Positions 44,255 to 56,632 of a stretch of 64,000 bases of DNA are shown in pieces. Source of the stretch: an uncultured Nitrososphaerota archaeon (lineage in GTDB: Archaea; Thermoproteota; Nitrososphaeria; Nitrososphaerales; Gagatemarchaeaceae); the NCBI GenBank assembly GCA_963718895.1, contig CAVRAG010000004.1:128001-192000 (forward strand), in the 5' to 3' direction. The position numbers and the translations under genes are program-made. Below the pieces are notes generated by a model. That model was not told the origin of the DNA and did no database searches. It saw only the letters and a program-made list of their open reading frames with translations. Positions within the stretch are counted from its first letter, which is position 1; each line of letters opens with the position of its first letter.

Positions 44255-45325
44255 TCAGGAGTTGTATTCGGCCCACAGGTTCAATGTGGTGGCGCTGCTG
44301 GGCTCCGCCACCGAGTAGAAGTTGCTCTGGATCCCGTCGCCCCACTGGGCGAAGACGAACGGCCCGTAGTTCGAGACGGCGACCTGATATGTCTCTCCCC
44401 CGTTGACATTGAAGGTGCACGGCGAGAAGCAGCTTTGCAACTTTGAACCGTCATGCCAGAGAGTGGTGTACAGCCCCCAGACCTCGTTGCCGTTTCGATC
44501 TATCGTGGTCACCGAGATTGTCCCCGCCGTACCTTGGCTGCTGGAATCGGAATCAGCCGCGGCCAGTGTCGCAGCAAGCCCATCGAGGTAGCTGGACTCC
44601 GGTGAGTACGGATTCGGCCATACCCCGTTTGTGAGATAGATGTATCCCAGATCCTTTGAGGCTGCCTGCGCGTAAGCCACATCTAGAGACTGCACGTCAT
44701 AAGCCACCACGGCAAAGTTGCTCTTTCCCGCTCCTGCATAGGCCGCGAGGGAAGTGAGGCTCGGCGCGCCAGGACTTTCGTATATGACCATCGTGTCGAC
44801 AGTTCCAATGTAGCTGGAGGGCACGCGGGCGCCAGGATTGCCCACAATCAAGGCCATCCCAATCGACTTTGCGTACGAGTTCAGGGTGGAGTAGTACCAT
44901 TCGTAGCCGGGGATGTTTGACATCTGGTCTAGATAGATCCCGTTCACGCCGTACAGGCCCTTGTAGGCGGCTATATCCGCCTCGGCGGAGGCGACGCTCC
45001 TCACGCCATAGTCAGTCCATACATAACCGATGACGGTAATTCCGGCCGACTGAAGGCTGTCTATCCCGGAGACGAAATTCGGATCCTGATACCAACCCGG
45101 ACCGTCGCTGGGGTTGATTACGGCGACCACGGGTACGTTCGGGTTCACCTGCTTCGCCCAAACTAGGTTGCTCCAGTCCGAACCCGGGTAGCTGTACAGC
45201 GGGACGATCAGCCCCGTCGCGGTCTGCGTGGATGCAGACGCTGTGTGTATGGCGCCAGGGACGAAGGACACGACGAATAGCAATCCGATAAGCGCCAGGA
45301 GTTTGGGTCCGTGGGAGCGGCGCAA
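44255..45325 (-). CDS. Spherulation-specific family 4 (GH135-like) secreted protein with C-terminal beta domain
   Basis: Signal peptide, VPLYSYP, VINP..GPG, IGYV.T.YG, GIYLDQ, GNPG, YE, NPY. Confidence 0.82.
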   Translation of the reverse strand: MRRSHGPKLLALIGLLFVVSFVPGAIHTASASTQTATGLIVPLYSYPGSDWSNLVWAKQVNPNVPVVAVINPSDGPGWYQDPNFVSGIDSLQSAGITVIGYVWTDYGVRSVASAEADIAAYKGLYGVNGIYLDQMSNIPGYEWYYSTLNSYAKSIGMALIVGNPGARVPSSYIGTVDTMVIYESPGAPSLTSLAAYAGAGKSNFAVVAYDVQSLDVAYAQAASKDLGYIYLTNGVWPNPYSPESSYLDGLAATLAAADSDSSSQGTAGTISVTTIDRNGNEVWGLYTTLWHDGSKLQSCFSPCTFNVNGGETYQVAVSNYGPFVFAQWGDGIQSNFYSVAEPSSATTLNLWAEYNS

Positions 45326-45552: not shown

Positions 45553-45560
45553 TTATAAAG
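45553..45560 (+). promoter_or_regulatory. TATA box of the Ku-ligase-PolX operon
   Basis: TTATAAAG 30 nt upstream of ATG at 45591. Confidence 0.55.
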
Positions 45561-45590: not shown

Positions 45591-46436
45591 ATGGCAAAGA
45601 ACATCTTCTCCGAAGTGGAGAAGCAGGCAGACAGTGCTGCGACCGCCAGGGCATCCTGGCGAGGGATACTTAGTCTGAACATCCCGACCCTAGGGCTCGG
45701 GGCGGTCGAGTACCACCTCCGAGCCGCCAAGGCCCACGGCAACCTTCAGCCTGTGAGCTACGTGAAGATAGACAAGAAGACAGGGAAGGAGGTCGTCAGC
45801 CGGGAGGTGCCTGTGATCTACAGGTACAAGGAGGGCCCGAGCGGGGAACGTCTCGACGTGCAGGAGGTCTCGAGAGACGAGGCGAAGAAGCACGTGAGGT
45901 ACGACGGCAAGTATCAGATCTCGGTCAGGAACGAGAAGAGGTTCTTTCTGAAGAACGAACTCGAGATCTCCGGCAAGTGGGTCGAGGTCCCTCTAAACCA
46001 GGTGGTGGACAAGCAGGGCGGGGAGGAGATCGAGCCCTTCGACAGGACGACTAAGATCGAGGTCGAACCGGACGGCTTCGTGCCCCTCGAGAGGCTCTCG
46101 GAGTACAAGTTCAAGGAGGTCTACCAGCTCGGGCCGGACACCGACAAGAAGGTCAAGGAGACCGCCTCGAGGATGAAGCAGCTCGCCAGGTACCTCCTCC
46201 AGAAGGACACTGCGCTCGTGTCGTTCTTCTCATGGGGGAGGGGCTACCAGTTCTACACGAGCGTGATCTACCCCTACGAGAGGAAGGACGGCAGGCTCTG
46301 GCTGCTGATGGGGCTGAGCGAGGGAATCCTGGTGCTCGACGACGCTTGGGCGCTAGAAGAGGAGGCGGACTCCGAGAGGCTCCCTGCCGTTCCGGTGGCC
46401 AGGAAGAAGAAGCCCAAGGTCACGATCGCCAAGTAG
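45591..46436 (+). CDS. Divergent Ku-like DNA end-binding protein
   Basis: Ku core blocks in the right order: RASWRGILSL..GLGAVEYHLRAA; VSYVKIDKKTGKEV; TKIEV...FVPLERLSEYKFKEVYQLGPD; LARYLLQKDTALVSFF; basic C-terminal tail. Confidence 0.72.
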   Translation: MAKNIFSEVEKQADSAATARASWRGILSLNIPTLGLGAVEYHLRAAKAHGNLQPVSYVKIDKKTGKEVVSREVPVIYRYKEGPSGERLDVQEVSRDEAKKHVRYDGKYQISVRNEKRFFLKNELEISGKWVEVPLNQVVDKQGGEEIEPFDRTTKIEVEPDGFVPLERLSEYKFKEVYQLGPDTDKKVKETASRMKQLARYLLQKDTALVSFFSWGRGYQFYTSVIYPYERKDGRLWLLMGLSEGILVLDDAWALEEEADSERLPAVPVARKKKPKVTIAK

Positions 46437-46464: not shown

Positions 46465-47292
46465 ATGAGCGACCTGCTCCCGAACTATGTCCTCGAGAAC
46501 TACGCCAAGGCCGTCAAGCACGACCTCGGGACGTGGCTCCTGAAGAACCCCCTCCCATCGATTTGCGAAGAGAAGCTCGACGGGATCAGGGTCTTCCTCT
46601 TCAAGAGCGGAGAGAAACTGGTCCTCTCCAGCAAGCACGGCGCAGTCTACACCCCGAAGGGCAACCCCAAGGTCTTCGCGAGGGTCCCCGAGTTCACCCA
46701 CGCTCCCTACCAGATGATCCTCGACGGGGAGTACCTCTCGCACGAGGGGCTCTTCCTTTTCGACGTCCTCCAGGTCGACGACCGCGACGTCCGACCGATG
46801 CTCCTCACGGAGAGGAAGAAGATCCTGAGGGAGATCCTGGGCGGCACCGACCTCGAGGTCGCCTATCGACTGGTGAAGACGTCGGAGGAGATAACCGAGC
46901 ACATGAAGGAGACCCTGGACAAAGGTGGCGAGGGTCTGATCGTAAAGAACCCTTCGTCGGCGTACGGACAGCCGAACTCGTGGCTCAAACTGAAGAGGTA
47001 CGACACGGTGGACTGCTTCATCATCGACTACGAAGAGACGCAGGAGATGAGGAGGACTGGCATCCCCAGGTCATGGCGCATCGGCGTCTATGATGAGCGG
47101 GGAGAGCGCGTCGAGCTGGGGAAGGTCGGGGCTTTCGTGGAGAGTGTGGACCCACGGCAGGTGAAGATGGGGTCCGTGGTCGAGATAAGATTCCAGGAGG
47201 TCACCGACGACCAGAAGCTCAGGGCGCCCTTCATCCTCAGGGTCCGGCACGACAAGACCCCTGACGAGTGTCTTCTGTCGCAGATAAAGTAG
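46465..47292 (+). CDS. Minimal ATP-dependent DNA ligase (adenylation + OB domains only)
   Basis: Motif I EEKLDGIR, III ILDGE, IIIa FDVL, IV EGLIVK, V WLKLK, VI LRAPFILRVRHDK. Confidence 0.93.
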   Translation: MSDLLPNYVLENYAKAVKHDLGTWLLKNPLPSICEEKLDGIRVFLFKSGEKLVLSSKHGAVYTPKGNPKVFARVPEFTHAPYQMILDGEYLSHEGLFLFDVLQVDDRDVRPMLLTERKKILREILGGTDLEVAYRLVKTSEEITEHMKETLDKGGEGLIVKNPSSAYGQPNSWLKLKRYDTVDCFIIDYEETQEMRRTGIPRSWRIGVYDERGERVELGKVGAFVESVDPRQVKMGSVVEIRFQEVTDDQKLRAPFILRVRHDKTPDECLLSQIK

Positions 47293-47297
47293 GCTGG

Positions 47298-47840
47298 GTG
47301 CTCTTCGTGAAGAAAGACCTGGACCCGAAGTTCGCCCGGGGGGTCGCGGAGGACTTTCTGAGGAAGACCGGGGACCTCTACGAGCGGGCCGAGCTCGCGG
47401 GCAGTCTCAGAAGGCACGCGCTCACAGTTCACGACATAGACTTCGCGGTCCTTCCCAAGGGCCGCGAGTTTGAGGCCTGGCGGGAGGAGGTGAAGCGGCG
47501 CGTCGAGGACATCGGCGGGAGTGTGATCTCGTTCGGTCAGGTGATATCCAACTTCCTATACAGCGAGGTCCAGGTCAACCTCTTCATCTGCCCGATAAAG
47601 GACTCATGGGGCGTGACGCTGATGTGGGCCACCGGTCCCAAGGGCCACACCATAGGGATGACGATCAAGGCCCGGGACAAGGGTCTCCTGATCAACTCGC
47701 AGGGCATCTGGACGAGGGATGAGCCCCGGCGGCTCATTCCCGCGAGGACCGAGAGGGAGGTCGGACGCGTGCTGGACTGGAAGTACAAAGACCCCGAGGA
47801 GAGGGGGAAGGCCGTCAAGAAGGGCCCTCTCTTCTACTAG
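47298..47840 (+). CDS. Minimal X-family DNA polymerase (palm + thumb, ASFV PolX-sized)
   Basis: AGSLRR...VHDIDF, LMWATGPKGH, ARDKGLLINSQGIW, TEREV...L.W.Y..PEER; start GTG at 47298 or 47307. Confidence 0.85.
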   Translation: MLFVKKDLDPKFARGVAEDFLRKTGDLYERAELAGSLRRHALTVHDIDFAVLPKGREFEAWREEVKRRVEDIGGSVISFGQVISNFLYSEVQVNLFICPIKDSWGVTLMWATGPKGHTIGMTIKARDKGLLINSQGIWTRDEPRRLIPARTEREVGRVLDWKYKDPEERGKAVKKGPLFY

Positions 47841-49050: not shown

Positions 49051-49254
49051 GTCATCGAGCTGGGGTCGTAATCTATTTAGTGAATTTCCGAGATGACTCC
49101 ATAATCTCTGCTAAATCATCAATGAATCTCCTAGGTCTGGGGACGGTCAATCCTAGGCCAGAGATTCGGGACATCCGCGGGACGACGTCTGAGAGTGAAA
49201 CGTACACAGCTAAAGGTAGACACGTTCATAACGCATCGCTGCCCAACATGTGGC

Positions 49255-51996
49255 ATGGCTTCACTCAAACCAAGAGTAGCCCTTCCCGGGAGTGAACGCG
49301 CGCCACCGCCTGGCGCTCGAATCGCCGGGAGGGTCGACGCCAGGGAAACCGCGCGCGTCACGGTGATCCTTCGCCCCAGTCCCTCATCATCCGGCAAGAA
49401 GAAGAAGGCCGCTCTGGAGGAGGTCAGCGCACTCCTTCCCGGCGACCGACGATACCCGACGCGGGAGGAATTCGCGGCCGACTACGGCGCAACGGCCGAG
49501 GAGTTCGTCAAAGTGGAGGAGTTCGCCCGCGATTATGGGCTCGGCGTGGCGGAGGAGAACCCGGCAAGGCGCTCGGTGGTCCTCTCGGGCACGCTGGGGC
49601 AGCTTTCCCTGGCTTTCGGGGTCAAGCTCATGCGCTACAAGCACCCGAAGGGCATCTTCCGCGGGCGGTCCGGGCCGATATACCTGCCCGCCGACCTGGC
49701 CCCTCTGGTGCTCGCAGTGCTCGGCCTTGACGACCGTCCTCAGGCCAAGTCGCATCTGCGAATCCTTGGGAAGATGGCCTCCACAGGAGGCGCACCCTAC
49801 ACACCGCCGCAGGTCGCTGAGATCTACGGCTTCCCTTCGGGCCTGGACGGGAGCGGGCAGTCGCTCGCCATAATAGAGCTGGGCGGCGGATTCACGACCG
49901 GTGACCTCCAGGCGTACTTCTCGAAGCTTGGGATTCCTGATCCGAGCGTGCTCTCCATCTCGGTCGACGGAGCGGGTAATTCGCCCACCGGAGACTCGAA
50001 CGGTCCGGATACTGAGGTCATGCTCGACATCGAGGTCATCGGGAGCATAGCTCCCAAGGCACAGATCTACGTCTACTTCGCTCCCAATACGGACGCAGGC
50101 TTTGTTGACGCGGTCAGCACGGCCGTCCACGATACTTTGCACAAGCCGTCCGTCATCTCGATAAGCTGGGGCGACGCTGAGTCGAACTGGACGCAGCAAG
50201 GAATCCAGGCGCTCGACCAGGCGTTTCAAGATGCGGCGCTGCTGGGCGTAACCGTCGCGGCAGCTTCAGGCGACAACGGCTCGTCCGACGGAGTGAAGGA
50301 CGGCCTAGCCCATGTGGACTTCCCGGCATCGTCCCAGTACGCGCTGGGCTGCGGAGGGACGCGGCTGCTGGGAGCGAAGGGCGACACCGCGATCAAGAGC
50401 GAAGTAGTCTGGAATGACGGGTCGGCCGGCGGAGCTACAGGGGGTGGAGTTAGCAGCGTCTTCCCGCTGCCGAGCTGGCAGAAAGGCGCGCACGTCCCGC
50501 CCTCAGCCAACCCCGGCGGACTTGTAGGCCGGGGAGTACCAGACGTCTCCGGCGACGCCGACCCGAGCACGGGCTACCTCGTGCGCGCCGACGGGAAGCA
50601 GATCCCGGTTGGCGGCACCAGCGCCGTGGCGCCCCTTTGGAGTGCGCTCGTGGGCCTGATCAATCAACAGGCGACGAGGGCGGGCGGAAAGCCGGTGGGG
50701 TATCTCAATCCCCTGCTCTATTCCCAGGCTCTCGGTTCCGCTGGCGCCTTTCACGATATCGTCTCCGGCAACAACGGCGCCTACGACGCGGCTCCGGGAT
50801 GGGACGCGTGCACCGGCCTCGGAAGCCCGGAGGGGACGAAGCTGCTCGCGGGAATAGGCGCGAAACTTTCGCAACCCGGGGGAAGGGAGAGGGGTCCGGC
50901 CGCACCAGCGGCGTTGAAGAGCCAGACCGCAAATGCGCCAGCGCGACGACGTGTCACCGACAACGCGAGCGCTCCGCCTTCATCTCCCATCAAGAACATC
51001 GTGGTTGTCTTCCAGGAGAATCACACGTTCGACAACTACTTCGGGACCTTCCCGGGCGCTGATGGGACACTCGGCAAGGCCTACTGTCTGCCGAAGACGC
51101 AGGGGTCGAAGAGCTGCATCTCTCCCTTCCACGACACCAATCTCACTCCTGTCGACATGAACCACGACTGGACAACAGCGCACAAAGACTACGACGCGGG
51201 CAAGATGGACGGCTTCGTCTACACCGAGGGAAACCAGGAGACCATGGGCTACTACGATTCCGGGGAATTGCCGCGCTACTGGAAGGCGGCCCAGCAGTAC
51301 GTGCTCTGCGACCGGTACTTCACCTCAGTCATGAGCGAGAGCCAGCCCAACCATCTCTCGCTCGTCGCTGGGACCTGCGGGGGGATTACTGACGACACCG
51401 TTCCCGCCACCATCACCTTCCCCCCAATCTTCGAGCAGCTGGACGGAGCCGGTATCTCGTGGAAGGTGTACAGCTCCACGTCGTGGTTCCTGACCTTCGG
51501 GTACGTCCAGAAGACCCCCAGCGCCAAGGCGAACTTCGTCCCGCCTGCACAGATCGTGACCGACATCCAGAACGGGACTCTCCCCCAGGTCTCCTGGATA
51601 ATCGGGGCGGCCGGAGGCGACGAGCACCCCTCGCAGGACATCCAGCTGGGTCAGAACTATGTTGCCGACGAGATCGTCAACAGCCTGGGAGGCGGGCGCT
51701 ACTGGGACTCGGTTGCGGTGTTCGTGACCTGGGACGATTTCGGAGGCTTCTTCGACCACGTCCCGCCGCCGCAGGTCGACAAGTACGGCTACGGGTTCCG
51801 GGTTCCGTGCCTGGTCGTCTCCCCCTACGCGAAGAAGGGATTCGTCGACAGCGCCGTCAACGACCATACCTCCATCCTCAAGTTCATCGAGACGCGCTAC
51901 GGGCTCTCTCCTCTCAGCACCAGAGACGCGGCCGCTAACGGCATGCTGGAGGCGTTCGACTTTACGCAGGCGCCTCGCACCTTCCAGCCGATCTGA
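49255..51996 (+). CDS. S53 (kumamolisin/sedolisin) protease fused to a phospholipase C/acid-phosphatase-type phosphoesterase
   Basis: Pro-domain; EVMLD (E/D), [13 protein letters not shown] (S), [11 protein letters not shown]; then [57 protein letters not shown]; probable ATG at 49255. Confidence 0.85.
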
Positions 51997-51999
51997 GCA

Positions 52000-54366
52000 C
52001 TAGGGTGCTGGAAGCATGCGGGACACCTTCGTGTAAGCAGGTGGATTGGGTGATTCGACGACTTCGGCGTCAACCGGCGCCAACCCGTGCGCTACTGGCA
52101 GAAGTCGGGTTTGGAAACCCGCCTGAGAAGCGACGGCGTCCTCGAGCGCCTCCTTGTCGACACCGAACGGCTGCAGGATGGCCAAGGCCCCTCGTAGCAA
52201 CAGTTCCACGTAGCGATCGGCGTCGTACTTGGTGGACGAATCCAGCAGCTCGACGGGGCGGACCCTCTCGCTCTGGACCTTGGATCTGTAGTCGGTGATG
52301 ACGTAGGAGACGGACTGTCCCGCCATCAGCTCCAGTCCCTCGTCAGCGAGCTGCCTTATGGCGGAGATCTGGACGAGGTTGCTGTTGTACTGGTCGTGGT
52401 CCTTTGAGAGCGAGTTCAGTATCACAAGGTCGGCGATGGGGACGCCCCCGCCCCGTATCTTGTCGGCGTAGCTCCTTACTGTCTGGATGGCGTCCGGGAT
52501 GAAGCGCCTGGCCTCATCGAGGGTCTTGCCCTGCGCGAGCTGCTGTAGCAGCTCACTCTGGCAATCCGTGACCACCTTGATCCCGTCGCTCCGCCTGAGC
52601 TCGATCCCTCTAATCTTCATGGACCCATCCTCGAATATACCGAAGTAGCGGTTGAGGACAGGGACGTCGTCATGCATCCTGCTCGGCAGGAAGGCTATCC
52701 ATCTGTAGATGCCCTCGAACGCGAGCGGTAGTCCTATGGCGGCCTGAATCTCCCGGCGCAGCTCCTCGAAGTCCCTCTCGGTCGCTCCTGGTCTTCTCAC
52801 CCAGAGAGAGTCGACTATCCCGTGCACGACCTCGAAGCCCCTCATCTCCGCAATCCGAACCGTTTCGAGCAGAATCTGCCGCGCGTACGCGCAGACGGAG
52901 ATGTGACAGTCGATTAGCCCGAACTTCGCATTTCTGAAACTTAGATATCCGAACGAGCACACTAAAATCCCCTTGAGGGCGTCCATCCTCGATGCATAGA
53001 CTCTCATGAGCTCGGGGTCTTTCTCGTTCTTCTTCAGCAGCTTGTAATCCAGCCTCTTCGTGAGTATGGGTTGAAGGCTCCTCGGAATAACGCCGTCCCG
53101 CTTCTCGCAGATGTGATAGCCGACGTCAGGCACCCGTGTACTCGAGTCCGGGCAGCACCAGCAAAGGACCGTCTCGGCGCTGACGTTGTGCTCTGTCATG
53201 ATGAAGGGGAAGAGCGAACTGAAGTCTATCTCCCCTACATCCTCGTGGAGCCCGACCTTCGGCTCGTAGATGAATCCTCCCCGGTCCCCCGCAAGGAGGG
53301 TCTTGGCGGTTTTCGGTATCTCCGCCCGGCTGGGCTTCCACGGTATCAGGAGTTCGTCCTTGAAGGCGACGTATGCCTGCAGGCTGCTGAGGCACTTGCC
53401 TATCGAGGCGCGGCTCCCCTTGTGCAGTGGTATTCGGCAGAGGCGGGCAATCTCGAAGAGACCGTCCAAGCCACACTCTGAGAAGACGAAGTAGTTCTCT
53501 GCGTCGAGGTTGATCCGGCCGTAGAGTTTGTGGGAGGTCGGCGTGTGGAGGACCTTGCCGTAGGCCATGTACGAAGTCCCCCTCTTGGTGAGCCTTCTCA
53601 GAGGTTCCCGGTCCCGGCTCAGGATGAGCTTGTCAGAGATGCCGTTCGCCCAGGCCCTCTCCGCTAGGTAGTGAGTGGTGAAGCTGTCGCCCCGCTGGAC
53701 GAAGATGATGTCGGGGTCGAGTTGTCGGATGGCATCCACGAGGGAGAGAATCTTCGCCCGCTCGTCTCCTTCCCCTATCTCTATCGTGGTCTCCGCGCTC
53801 TTCACGGTTACCCTTTCGATTGGGTCTGAGAACTTTGGTATGCTGCCTGACGCATCCACGTAGACCTCGATCCAGGCCTTCCTCAGGAGAGGGGCCAGGT
53901 AGTCCTTCGACATCACAGAGTCGAGGAGCTTCCACCTGATGGAAGCGCCCGCCTGCTGGGCCCTGACGCGGGCGAGCGGGAAGAGATCCTTCTCGAAGAA
54001 ATATGTCTGCGCAGGCATCAGGTCGGCGTTGAAGATGCGGAACGGCGAGCCGACCTCGAGCGCTTCCATCTCCCTGGCGAGCTTCTCCGAGTTTTCGGCG
54101 TTCCTGAGCGTGAGCTTGAGGACTGGGCGCTTCGCGTACTCGAAGATGTTGATGCGCCTGTTCACATACTCGCACGAGAAGACGATGTACTGGTGTTCAG
54201 CCCACTCGGCTAGCTTCTCCAGCCCCTCAGCGGAGGATGAGACGAATATCGCGTTGCGCCAACTGTCGGTCAGGCGGACCGTATTCCCGTCGTCTTTCTT
54301 GACCCATGCCACCATCTCCCCGTTCCGTCCGGGATAGACGTCTAGGAGCCAGCCCTCGATTTCCAT
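52000..54366 (-). CDS. polB2: Archaeal PolB2-group family B DNA polymerase
   Basis: DRGG, motif A DFSSLFP, motif B LKGILVCSFGY, motif C HGIVDSLW (PolB2-type variants); no intact Exo motifs. Confidence 0.9.
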   Translation of the reverse strand: MEIEGWLLDVYPGRNGEMVAWVKKDDGNTVRLTDSWRNAIFVSSSAEGLEKLAEWAEHQYIVFSCEYVNRRINIFEYAKRPVLKLTLRNAENSEKLAREMEALEVGSPFRIFNADLMPAQTYFFEKDLFPLARVRAQQAGASIRWKLLDSVMSKDYLAPLLRKAWIEVYVDASGSIPKFSDPIERVTVKSAETTIEIGEGDERAKILSLVDAIRQLDPDIIFVQRGDSFTTHYLAERAWANGISDKLILSRDREPLRRLTKRGTSYMAYGKVLHTPTSHKLYGRINLDAENYFVFSECGLDGLFEIARLCRIPLHKGSRASIGKCLSSLQAYVAFKDELLIPWKPSRAEIPKTAKTLLAGDRGGFIYEPKVGLHEDVGEIDFSSLFPFIMTEHNVSAETVLCWCCPDSSTRVPDVGYHICEKRDGVIPRSLQPILTKRLDYKLLKKNEKDPELMRVYASRMDALKGILVCSFGYLSFRNAKFGLIDCHISVCAYARQILLETVRIAEMRGFEVVHGIVDSLWVRRPGATERDFEELRREIQAAIGLPLAFEGIYRWIAFLPSRMHDDVPVLNRYFGIFEDGSMKIRGIELRRSDGIKVVTDCQSELLQQLAQGKTLDEARRFIPDAIQTVRSYADKIRGGGVPIADLVILNSLSKDHDQYNSNLVQISAIRQLADEGLELMAGQSVSYVITDYRSKVQSERVRPVELLDSSTKYDADRYVELLLRGALAILQPFGVDKEALEDAVASQAGFQTRLLPVAHGLAPVDAEVVESPNPPAYTKVSRMLPAP

Positions 54367-54626
54367 GCCTCGACCTCAGCCTTCAGCTTCTCGAGCTCAC
54401 CCTCGAATCCCTTGATGCGCCTCTCCTGCATGAGCAGGACCGTGAGGAAGAAGGGTTCGGTCAGGTAGTCCTTGCCGGATTGCTCGACTGACTCGAGGTA
54501 CCTCCAGCAGGACTCCATCATCTCCCGGGCGACCTGCCTGTCCTCGAACCTCAGCGCCTCGATGAACGGCCTCCAGCTCTCAAGCTCCTCCTTGAAGAGC
54601 CTGACGTTGACCTTCTCTTCAATCAC
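54342..54626 (-). CDS. Small helical PolB2-associated protein, copy 2
   Basis: E..SW..F..ALR.EDR......M pattern shared with the upstream small ORF; overlaps the polB2 start. Confidence 0.7.
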   Translation of the reverse strand: MIEEKVNVRLFKEELESWRPFIEALRFEDRQVAREMMESCWRYLESVEQSGKDYLTEPFFLTVLLMQERRIKGFEGELEKLKAEVEAWKSRAGS

Positions 54627-54891
54627 CGCTGCGCATCTCCAACCTGAGCTTCTCTATCGCTACCGAGAGGTCCTCGAGCCGTCTCGCGTGGTCGAACGCC
54701 ATCGCCATGAACATCCCCTCGAATCTGACCGGGCGGACGGCGTTCGAGGAGGCGGAGCAGTATGTCCTCGCCTTGTTGAACATGGCGTCGAGGGCCTCCT
54801 TCGATCCTGTTCCGAGGGAGCGCCTGTACCGCGACCAGCTCGCTATCTCCTGTTCAAGGGCTATCCGGAACGACGGCACGGTCCTACCCGT
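54619..54891 (-). CDS. Small helical PolB2-associated protein (arCOG07300-like), copy 1
   Basis: (M)GRTVPSFRIALEQEIASWSRYRRSL...ALDAMF..AR; start at ACG 54891 or GTG 54879. Confidence 0.78.
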   Translation of the reverse strand, partial: TGRTVPSFRIALEQEIASWSRYRRSLGTGSKEALDAMFNKARTYCSASSNAVRPVRFEGMFMAMAFDHARRLEDLSVAIEKLRLEMRSGD

Positions 54892-55648
54892 GGAGCTTCA
54901 CCTCCGTCTTGAGCGTGTCTTGGTTATAGCTGGCGGGACCCGCATCACACAGGAACTCCGCCGGAGCCTTCCAAGGATGCTTGAAGAGGTGCAACGCGAC
55001 GCGGCGGCCGCTCTCGGTGATCTCGGCCGATATGTTGCAGCACCCGTCGAGGATGGGGGCGAGGGGCTCTGGCCGATTAGCCGAGGTGATGAGTATCGGG
55101 ACCTGTTCGCGTTCACTAATGTCCGAAATCGAGGAGGCGATGTCGCGGACGACCCTCTTCGCCTCGCCCTTCTCCACATCCTCGTTGAAGAGCGAGAAGA
55201 ACTCGGAGATGACCAGGAGCTTCGGCTTCCTGGTCGCGAACACGGCTGCTGAGCCCTCGATCAAAGAACCGAGCTCATAGATTGTGAATGCGCGCGAGAG
55301 CAGCTGACGGTCGAGAGCCGTGTTGTAAGCGAGATGGTGTTTGTGGGCCAGTTCCGTGAAGAGGTAGATGTCGAAGCTGTTCCCCCCGTCGATGAAGAAG
55401 GCGCTGCCCTCGAGCCCGCCATTGGCCAAGGGGAGCTGGGCGCGGATGCAGTACCTCTCCGCGGCCTGAAGCCTGATGCCTGAGCCCGTGATGAGCGCCA
55501 CCGTGTCAGGCTTGAGCCCTCCTATGAGCGAGTCCACCAGAATCATCCCGGATGTGAGGCCGAGCAGCGAACGGGCCGTGATGAAGGCCGGATGGTCCTG
55601 TCTGGGCCCCTTGGGAGGCTGTGGGAGCTGGAGACTCTTCGCTGACAT
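54884..55648 (-). CDS. RadA/RecA-fold protein with degenerate Walker A (PolB2-cassette partner)
   Basis: LTSG...VDSLIGGL, Walker A lacks GKT (LITGSG), GGLEG..FFIDGGNSFD.Y, SRAFTIYEL. Confidence 0.82.
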   Translation of the reverse strand: MSAKSLQLPQPPKGPRQDHPAFITARSLLGLTSGMILVDSLIGGLKPDTVALITGSGIRLQAAERYCIRAQLPLANGGLEGSAFFIDGGNSFDIYLFTELAHKHHLAYNTALDRQLLSRAFTIYELGSLIEGSAAVFATRKPKLLVISEFFSLFNEDVEKGEAKRVVRDIASSISDISEREQVPILITSANRPEPLAPILDGCCNISAEITESGRRVALHLFKHPWKAPAEFLCDAGPASYNQDTLKTEVKLHG

Positions 55649-55774
55649 TCGACGGTCGAAGCCAGTCCGGGCTAATAATGCGGCGCTAGAGTTTCAATGG
55701 GCTCCTTGGAGAGGTGGATGAAAGTGAGTCCCAATCGCTTAAATCTCAGCGAAGGGCGTTTCCTGCTCGAGAAG

Positions 55775-56632
55775 TTGTCCAACGTCAGCTTGGGCACCTC
55801 CGGATGGTCCTACAAGGAATGGGAGGGAGTGCTCTACCCCAAGGGTGAGAAGAGGAAGCTCACCTACTACTCGAGGTACTTCAAGACGGTCGAGATAGAT
55901 TCGACTTACTACGCCTATCCGGCGAAGGCGATGGTCCAAGGATTCGCGAGTGCCACGCCTGAGGGTTTCGTCTTCTCAGCGAAGCTCCCGAAACTGATCA
56001 CCCACGAGAAGAGGCTGGATGTCGCGAGGGGGGTCCAGCAGGACCTCGCGCGCTTTCTGCACGTCATGCGGCCGCTCGAGGATGCTGGGAAGCTTGGGGC
56101 CTTCCTCATCCAGCTTCCGCCGAGCTTCTCCTATGAGCGGGACCTGGCGAGCCTGGGCGGCTTCCTGAAGGTCGTCCCCTCGGACTTGCGGTTCGCGATC
56201 GAGTTCCGTCACCCGTCGTGGCTACGCCCGGACACCTGGGACCTGTTGAGGAAGTATAACGTGGCCAACACCATAGTCGATGAGCCCCTGCTTCCACCCG
56301 ATCCGGTCGTAACGGCTGACTTCTCCTACATCAGGTGGCACGGCCAGGGGACAAGGCCCTGGTACAACTACAGGTACAGCGACAAGGAGCTTGAGGCGTG
56401 GGTGCCGAGGGTGAAGGAGGTGGCCGCGAAGACCAAGAAGGTCTACGGGTATCACAACAACCATCCCTTCGGGCACGCCGTGGAGAGCGCCCTCAAGGAG
56501 ACGGAGCTCCTCGGAATCGCCAGCGACGAGCAGAGATCCCTCCAGGCTCGCGTCACTCGCGCCATCGACCTGAGGCTGAGGCGGCCGGCCGGGTCGGATC
56601 AGGAACTCCTGGACCTCGGCGCTGCTCGTTAG
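55775..56632 (+). CDS. DUF72 protein, paralog 3 (canonical motifs)
   Basis: GTSGWSY, VEIDSTYY, KLPK.ITH, QLPPSF, IEFRH.SW, VDEP, YIRWHG, NNH; probable TTG at 55775. Confidence 0.9.
   Translation: MSNVSLGTSGWSYKEWEGVLYPKGEKRKLTYYSRYFKTVEIDSTYYAYPAKAMVQGFASATPEGFVFSAKLPKLITHEKRLDVARGVQQDLARFLHVMRPLEDAGKLGAFLIQLPPSFSYERDLASLGGFLKVVPSDLRFAIEFRHPSWLRPDTWDLLRKYNVANTIVDEPLLPPDPVVTADFSYIRWHGQGTRPWYNYRYSDKELEAWVPRVKEVAAKTKKVYGYHNNHPFGHAVESALKETELLGIASDEQRSLQARVTRAIDLRLRRPAGSDQELLDLGAAR

Follow-up and report, generated by a model that had tools for sequence, protein, structure and literature searches.

A diverged archaeal Ku predicted to lack the C-terminal helical arm, encoded with a minimal DNA ligase and a minimal PolX

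The window analysed here is a 64,000-nucleotide stretch of a contig from an uncultured Nitrososphaerota archaeon of the Gagatemarchaeaceae (GenBank CAVRAG010000004.1, positions 128,001 to 192,000). It carries an operon of three small genes that encode, in this order, a Ku protein without the usual C-terminal arm (hereafter armless Ku), an ATP-dependent DNA ligase and an X-family DNA polymerase, PolX (Table 1). Of 43 upstream regions, 35 had a TT(A/T)5 box like the one preceding the operon at 22 to 50 nt 5' of the start of Ku, compared with 0 of 43 control regions further upstream; a sigma-70 promoter scan, a type ill-suited to archaea, returned nothing. Divergent from the operon is a gene for a Spherulin-4 family protein (44255-45325, minus strand), of which the genome has several paralogues. 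Further downstream, 49195-51996 encodes a 933-aa fusion of a kumamolisin-type S53/subtilase protease with a phosphoesterase-family domain, which recurs at one related locus (L001), while another (L002) has the protease part only. The stretch 52000-56632 holds, on the minus strand, a family B polymerase gene (788 aa), two short open reading frames and a RadA-like gene, with a DUF72 gene divergent, a set which we take to resemble the archaeal PolB2 cassette. A link between Ku and this cassette was rejected, as none of the 44 loci of relatives showed the cassette within the fetched flanks. A DUF72 gene was found in 17 of these 44 loci (L001-L044), often directly adjoining Ku and in either orientation, and it is a possible fourth partner of the Ku operon.

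Table 1. Positions in the window of the Ku operon and of the parts of its Ku protein
Feature	Position	Strand	Basis
TATA-like box TTATAAA, operon promoter	45553..45559	+	motif upstream of Ku
Armless Ku (281 aa, P0001)	45591..46436	+	Pfam, structural match, 336 homologues
Beta-hairpin 1 of barrel (aa 19-48)	45645..45734	+	model strands 23-31, 36-47
Bridge insertion (~aa 75-115), predicted beta-hairpin and helix	45813..45935	+	spacing, model
Short, predicted non-helical tail (aa 247-281) in place of sling and C-terminal helix	46329..46433	+	spacing, model
Minimal ATP-dependent DNA ligase (adenylation and OB domains, 275 aa)	46465..47292	+	PF01068 75.6 bits, OB-domain matches
Minimal PolX (palm and thumb, ~177 aa), D-D-N triad	47307..47840	+	PF14791 40.9 bits; start codon 47307 inferred from homologues

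The first gene of the operon encodes a real, highly diverged Ku, as the initial annotation had proposed from four sequence motifs, all of which are present in the product. It matched the Pfam Ku family (PF02735) at 26.9 bits (E 5.3e-6), a narrow pass over the gathering cut-off of 25. An AlphaFold2 monomer model built on a 123-row alignment (mean pLDDT 88.4) contained the split beta-barrel of Ku, made of hairpin 1 and C-terminal strands with the bridge between them. When compared with 48,161 representative chains, the model matched the Ku of Mycobacterium tuberculosis (Z 14.5, rmsd 7.2 over 191 residues), that of Bacillus subtilis (Z 14.4) and Ku80 (Z 12.6-12.7), with SPOC-type barrels ranking below Ku (Z 7-11, ~110 residues aligned) and unrelated folds under Z 5. 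The overall rmsd is high because the bridge moves freely; the barrel alone (model residues 17-248) superposed on Ku80 242-430 with an rmsd of 3.1 A over 123 residues. Foldseek placed Ku80 at the top (E 8.9e-9) and M. tuberculosis Ku near it (E 3.9e-8), and in a viral library two phage Ku models were the only matches under E 0.001. To our knowledge, the structure of Mu Gam is not Ku-like. Homologues of the window Ku numbered 336 at E <= 0.001, the best 120 of which were 75-93% identical to it and nearly always 280-286 aa long; records with this type of Ku came nearly all from Nitrososphaerota/Thaumarchaeota or archaeal assemblies.

Whether standard profiles miss such a protein, as had been suggested, depends on the profile. 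Pfam passes the window protein, a close relative is named 'Ku protein' at NCBI and some members of the family are already labelled Ku automatically. On the other side, NCBIfam gave the window protein no match, including to TIGR02772 (prokaryotic Ku), and TIGR02772 found nothing in 97 genomes of the window's taxonomic family with a positive B. subtilis control. Pfam Ku passed only 5 of 22 diverse relatives, 11 of which had no Ku match of any kind, and a six-frame search of the window's own genome with PF02735 missed the gene. A PHROGs search with the window Ku likewise gave no match. Searches of PDB sequences with a single sequence or with the clade I profile (see below) returned no Ku, which only profiles containing clade II reached; a profile of the armless proteins matched M. 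tuberculosis Ku at E 2.4e-6, and, although bacterial Ku was matched, armless profiles found nothing at E <= 10 against Ku70/80. NUDT5 and LolA matches in the PDB profile search were discarded as chance (E > 0.5).

A phmmer search of 1.84 billion representatives gave 61 matches, the longest of 346 aa, and the family comprises a clade I (at least 32% identity) and a distant clade II. The profiles of the two clades matched each other with a probability of 99.7, and each matched a profile of archaeal canonical Ku weakly (probability ~59, E ~9e-5). A model of a clade II protein, whose C-terminal end was likewise predicted without helices, had bacterial Ku as its best match, with the aligned region confined to the C-terminal portion of the barrel (Z 9.8, rmsd 2.2, 89 residues). 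In a quick tree (unrooted, without eukaryotic rows and with the canonical sequences trimmed just past the barrel), 46 armless and 16 canonical Ku were split by a branch with an SH-aLRT of 100, and support was 96 for clade I and 92 for clade II. Armless Ku is a member of the Ku superfamily that lies outside the prokaryotic Ku defined by TIGR02772 and is not Ku70/80. Longer fused forms (539-2000 aa) were absent from the 7998 scored candidates, which counts as light evidence, and scans of viral contigs, which need near-exact peptide words and so weigh little, found no relative of an armless or a canonical query.

To locate what was gained and lost, we counted spacings in an alignment of 18 clade I, 28 clade II and 13 canonical Ku sequences, 3 of 16 canonical Ku being omitted for lack of an anchor motif. 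From G25 to I156 the window Ku has 131 residues, compared with 82-84 in the 13 canonical proteins, and the net gain of 47 to 49, whichever register is used, agrees with the roughly 45-50 extra residues estimated in the initial annotation. Some 8 of the extra residues precede the bridge, in the region of hairpin 1, where the stretch from G25 to G65 that includes it measures 40 residues compared with 32-33 in canonical Ku; hairpin 1 is also the best-conserved segment (mean identity 0.89). The other ~41 lie within the bridge, where V68 to V133 spans 65 residues compared with 23-24. In the model this insert forms strands 76-81 and 87-93 and a helix at 95-101 (pLDDT ~86-92), and its mean identity among 96 close homologues is 0.68, compared with 0.86 for the barrel. 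Taken alone (aa 66-135), the insert region scored 0.76 to Ku clusters in the Atlas, under the threshold for a lead. The V68-V133 span ranges from 34 to 105 residues in clade I and from 9 to 63 in clade II; the insert is short or absent in some relatives, and the bridge itself is retained in all 46 aligned ones, the shortest being close to canonical length. Two clade I proteins (P0129 and P0130) carry separate cysteine-rich, zinc-ribbon-like insertions at differing positions of the bridge.

The register of the second conserved block was amended in part. VSYVKIDKKTGKEV aligns in our own alignments with the FxxLHKxDGxPI hairpin of canonical Ku and not with IRYKRVCxxxGxEV, the match first proposed, and of the two bridge hairpins it probably represents the first, though a HMMER alignment to M. 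tuberculosis Ku chose the original register instead.

At the other end of the protein, 39 residues follow the last barrel strand, compared with 93-154 in the 13 canonical Ku, and the model has no helix of four or more residues beyond residue 204, which bears out the loss of the C-terminal helical arm. In M. tuberculosis Ku, the available text of the structural reports describes a helix-turn-helix sling (167-227) that forms one of three dimer interfaces (PMC12784962) and a helix (252-273) implicated in LigD binding (PMC12784962, PMC12658125); as judged from the model, both the sling and the LigD-binding helix are absent from the window Ku. Its tail begins with a short first leg (247-256), in which W253 is nearly invariant in clade I, and continues as the acidic linker and basic end that had been noticed at the outset. 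This end has the pattern KPKVxI(S/A)K, found in 102 of the 123 rows of the alignment A2; clade II accounts for 12 of the 21 rows that lack it. Because the post-barrel tail measures 30-54 residues in all 46 armless proteins while the insert-bearing span varies from 9 to 105, the loss of the arm is, as far as the alignment can tell, the common trait of these relatives, and the insert a variable addition. The idea of a new Ku subfamily stood in that the group is distinct (SH-aLRT 100), but it is arm loss that defines it and not the bridge insert.

A homodimer model of the window Ku scored 0.53, compared with 0.02 for the best control. Among solved homodimers 20 of 30 attained this mark, and among single chains 1 of 23. 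The runs had a contact agreement of at least 31% and a pLDDT of at least 76, and since Ku dimers have already been solved, the pass may reflect likeness to them. The best run is probably domain-swapped, because the strand pairs listed in its interface (23-178, 25-156 and 45-181) form within a single chain both in the monomer model and in Ku80. Residues 247-257 touch the barrel of the partner chain in this model, like the start of the sling in M. tuberculosis Ku, and no bridge residue (49-152) was confidently placed. The model lends weak support to a ring-shaped dimer, and such a ring could be weakened because the lost sling supplies, in the available text of PMC12784962, one of the three interfaces of the M. 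tuberculosis dimer. We think it very unlikely that the barrel was kept while the protein ceased to encircle DNA and took on a SPOC-like role, serving the ligase and the PolX-like protein as an adaptor or scaffold. The lost sling, the remodelled bridge, the Z of 7-11 for SPOC-type barrels and the missing bridge contacts in the dimer model would all fit such a role, but the Ku matches are stronger and cover the bridge (191 residues compared with ~110 for SPOC), which all 46 aligned relatives have retained.

The order Ku, ligase, PolX, with Ku first, was kept in 41 of 44 genome loci. Two of the three exceptions stop 219 and 608 nt past the Ku match, and the third (L038) is free of a ligase over 1.9 kb. 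Residues K37 (KxDG), G40, R42, DGEY, G157, W173, K175 and K177 (WLKxK) of the ligase were invariant in 39 copies, so that its catalytic motifs are, on sequence grounds, intact. The PolX lacks a PHP nuclease domain, a BRCT domain and an 8-kDa domain. Its profile matched Thermus thermophilus PolX (E 4e-10) and repair PolX chains of 174-178 aa (E ~2e-9 to 3e-8), and it keeps the GSxRR and DxD motifs, with D43 and D45 present in 42 of 42 copies. The third catalytic Asp is an Asn (codon 47577-47579) in all 42, where QVNLF aligned to QVDLR and QLDLF of solved PolX. According to the available text of PMC9226535, PolX with altered triads have no polymerase activity, and the DDN triad speaks against ordinary filling of gaps. 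The DDN PolX nevertheless stays ~70% conserved, and lost polymerase activity does not explain such strong conservation. Among 401 genomes of the order, counting strong Ku matches only and dropping two weak ones, 50 had Ku, 54 had the minimal PolX, 47 had both and 344 had neither (kin are not independent), and several of the mismatches sit at contig ends. Genes split into two frames were seen for the ligase in L072, L090, L091, L094 and L095 and for Ku in G415, G532 and L043, which could reflect sequencing errors or decay. In one genome (G540), the operon copy of Ku carries an internal TAA, and a second, more divergent armless Ku (L132:6713-7633) lies beside a run of small membrane or secreted proteins with no adjoining ligase.

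Gagatemarchaeaceae are described in the available text of PMC10640624 as acid-soil archaea that do not oxidize ammonia. The armless Ku gene was found in 42 of 97 genomes of this family (12 of 26 near-complete ones) and in 9 of 13 genomes of a second Nitrososphaerales family, and was not found in two samples of 112 genomes drawn from other families. Clade I Ku is single-copy in most genomes, with copies 64-90% identical. As none of the 97 genomes yielded a canonical Ku, armless Ku is the only Ku found in the family. At the level of the phylum, 10 of 401 sampled genomes had canonical Ku, within POL-Ku-LIG-PE operons. A tblastn search with one LigD POL query found none in the armless-Ku loci searched or in the window's own genome (80.5% complete). 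That genome has a stand-alone homologue of the LigD 3'-phosphoesterase away from the operon (G000:C7:658422-659087).

For clade II we considered 34 loci, 33 of them from a metagenome scan with one subgroup and one a genome locus. A ligase adjoins Ku in 25 of the 34, and 6 of the other 9 have at most 204 nt downstream; a minimal PolX was found in none. Directly upstream, 3 of the loci have a gene for a LigD 3'-phosphoesterase. Several conserved families without known function accompany clade II Ku and ligase (5 to 11 of 34 loci, within L069-L101), and the four compared with Pfam had no convincing match; these families may define an undescribed archaeal integrative element. The hosts of clade II are probably Bathyarchaeia or relatives, and the loci look like integrated elements in these other archaea. 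This setting bears on the idea that armless Ku and ligase are first of all a mobile-element cassette that shields and circularises linear or excised DNA of the element itself; the chromosomal operon would then be a captured copy with host repair as a secondary use. Mycobacteriophages carry canonical Ku and use it for genome circularisation. Clade II Ku sits in runs of unknown genes, with an N6-methyltransferase homologue common to 11 of the 34 loci. At one locus (L097) its neighbour is a tyrosine integrase, and the genes around them include FttA, CO dehydrogenase and other housekeeping genes of archaea. Clade II Ku is also sporadic, occurring in 1 of 26 genomes of one class, and a divergent clade I copy (G404) has the ligase without PolX, among unknown genes and a MoxR-vWA pair. 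We nevertheless rate this explanation as unlikely for the operon in the window, since the 44 genome loci share ordinary cellular neighbours with no integrase or capsid cluster, the copies are mostly single, 64-90% identical and preceded by a conserved promoter box, and the viral-contig scans, which need near-exact words, found no relatives. The simplest history would be a mobile pair of Ku and ligase that was later fixed in two Nitrososphaerales families and to which PolX was added, the direction being our inference.

Taken together, Ku, ligase and PolX form, with reasonable probability, a compact archaeal end-joining module without a LigD polymerase. In such a module, a homodimeric Ku ring would thread onto the ends of broken double-stranded DNA, and the small ATP-dependent ligase would seal them. 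The minimal PolX may bind the gap or nick, either adding nucleotides slowly or serving as a non-catalytic end factor, weak or no catalysis being suggested by the Asn in place of the third metal-binding Asp. Any contact with partners would have to be made by the core, by the bridge insert or by the conserved basic tail, because the sling and the C-terminal helix are lost and the module has no LigD primase-type polymerase. In bacterial Ku, LigD binding has been mapped, in the available text of two reports, to the C-terminal helix and tail (PMC12784962, PMC12658125), so that the loss of the helix implicated in LigD binding, in an operon without LigD polymerase, makes the altered partner recruitment that was first suggested plausible. 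As the Ku core by itself is reported to bind the LigD ligase domain (available text of PMC9638933), the joint loss of arm and LigD polymerase would be coherent. The end-joining reading is favoured by the fold match, the operon order in 41 of 44 loci, the co-occurrence of Ku and PolX, the lack of canonical Ku in the 97 genomes and the ligase beside clade II Ku in 25 of 34 loci, as well as by the LigD 3'-phosphoesterase in three clade II loci and its stand-alone copy in the window's own genome. It is weakened by the DDN triad with no PHP nuclease as a fallback, by L038 and the second G540 copy that have no adjoining ligase, and by the presence of the gene in only 42 of 97 genomes. Alternatively, the three proteins might repair single-strand gaps or abasic sites in the manner of LigC/Prim-PolC, in which case the Ku ring would serve PolX and ligase as a clamp or a lyase. 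LigC is reported to act in base excision repair (PMC5663958). PolX and a small ligase are the usual pair for gap repair, the best PolX profile matches include minimal repair PolX chains, and a DUF72 gene lies inside the fetched locus in 17 of 44 cases. We consider this reading improbable, because efficient filling is doubtful with a DDN triad, because PolX is missing from all 34 clade II loci, where Ku goes with a ligase and at times also with an end-healing phosphoesterase, and because the neighbours shared between loci, clustered and in part annotated, included no recognisable glycosylase or AP endonuclease family.

Several known systems resemble this operon in part. Bacterial and archaeal Ku (TIGR02772; M. 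tuberculosis 9I91/8V53, B. subtilis 9VNQ), which act with LigD, share the core of hairpin 1, bridge and barrel and the link to an ATP-dependent ligase (41 of 44 loci in clade I, 25 of 34 in clade II). They differ in matching TIGR02772 and in having, per the available text of PMC12784962, the sling (167-227) and C-terminal helix (252-273) that armless Ku appears to lack; armless Ku in turn has a longer hairpin 1 region and a variable bridge insert, and is paired with a minimal PolX instead of the primase-type domain of LigD. The split archaeal operons of the Methanocella type (POL, Ku, LIG, PE) similarly devote a small separate gene to each step within one operon, but their Ku has a full arm (93 residues after the barrel) and falls on the canonical side of the tree, and their polymerase is a LigD POL homologue. 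The trio of a Ku, an X-family polymerase and an ATP-dependent ligase mirrors eukaryotic Ku70/Ku80, Pol lambda/mu and ligase IV, with the same barrel fold. In contrast to Ku70/80, armless Ku has no vWA domain, its barrel beginning at about residue 19, has no C-terminal arm and is usually encoded by one gene copy, and in contrast to Pol lambda/mu the operon PolX is without BRCT or 8-kDa domains. Minimal viral repair PolX (174-178 aa, e.g. 1JAJ) likewise consist of palm and thumb only and share GSxRR and DxD, and an altered triad is also found in the noncanonical prokaryotic PolX covered in the available text of PMC9226535; the operon PolX is set apart from both by its invariant Asn, the missing PHP domain and its fixed operon with Ku.

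A 2025 survey of Ku used 19 archaeal sequences, and its available text names none from the lineages with armless Ku (PMC11936186). The available text of bioRxiv 10.1101/2020.06.28.176255 portrays archaeal nonhomologous end joining (NHEJ) as very rare and bacterial in type. Our literature search, which excluded supplements, found no description of the armless Ku family or its operon, and the main text of the Gagatemarchaeaceae genome paper does not mention NHEJ, ligase or PolX. The armless lineage goes undetected by the prokaryotic Ku model, and most of its diverse members also escape Pfam, yet it is present in 50 of 401 sampled genomes of the order and occurs in other archaea within gene clusters that look mobile. 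A bolder view, to which we give a small chance, is that armless Ku is a third deep branch of Ku native to Thermoproteota and their mobile elements, that acid-soil Nitrososphaerales join ends with a separate Ku, X-family polymerase and ligase, otherwise a eukaryotic parts list, that armless Ku is perhaps nearer to the ancestor of Ku70/80 than bacterial Ku is, and that the DDN PolX may have a new role in end processing or end sensing. Language-model features, for which the nearest other clusters are eukaryotic Ku (0.92-0.93), and Foldseek ranks lean towards the eukaryotic proteins; HMM scores and structural Z lean towards the bacterial ones, and the tree is without eukaryotic sequences. Armless Ku supplies a missing branch for trees that address the origin of eukaryotic Ku. 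It is also a natural deletion experiment that would test what the ring and the stimulation of ligase need without the sling and LigD helix, and with three proteins as small as 281, 275 and ~177 aa, the module should be simple to reconstitute.
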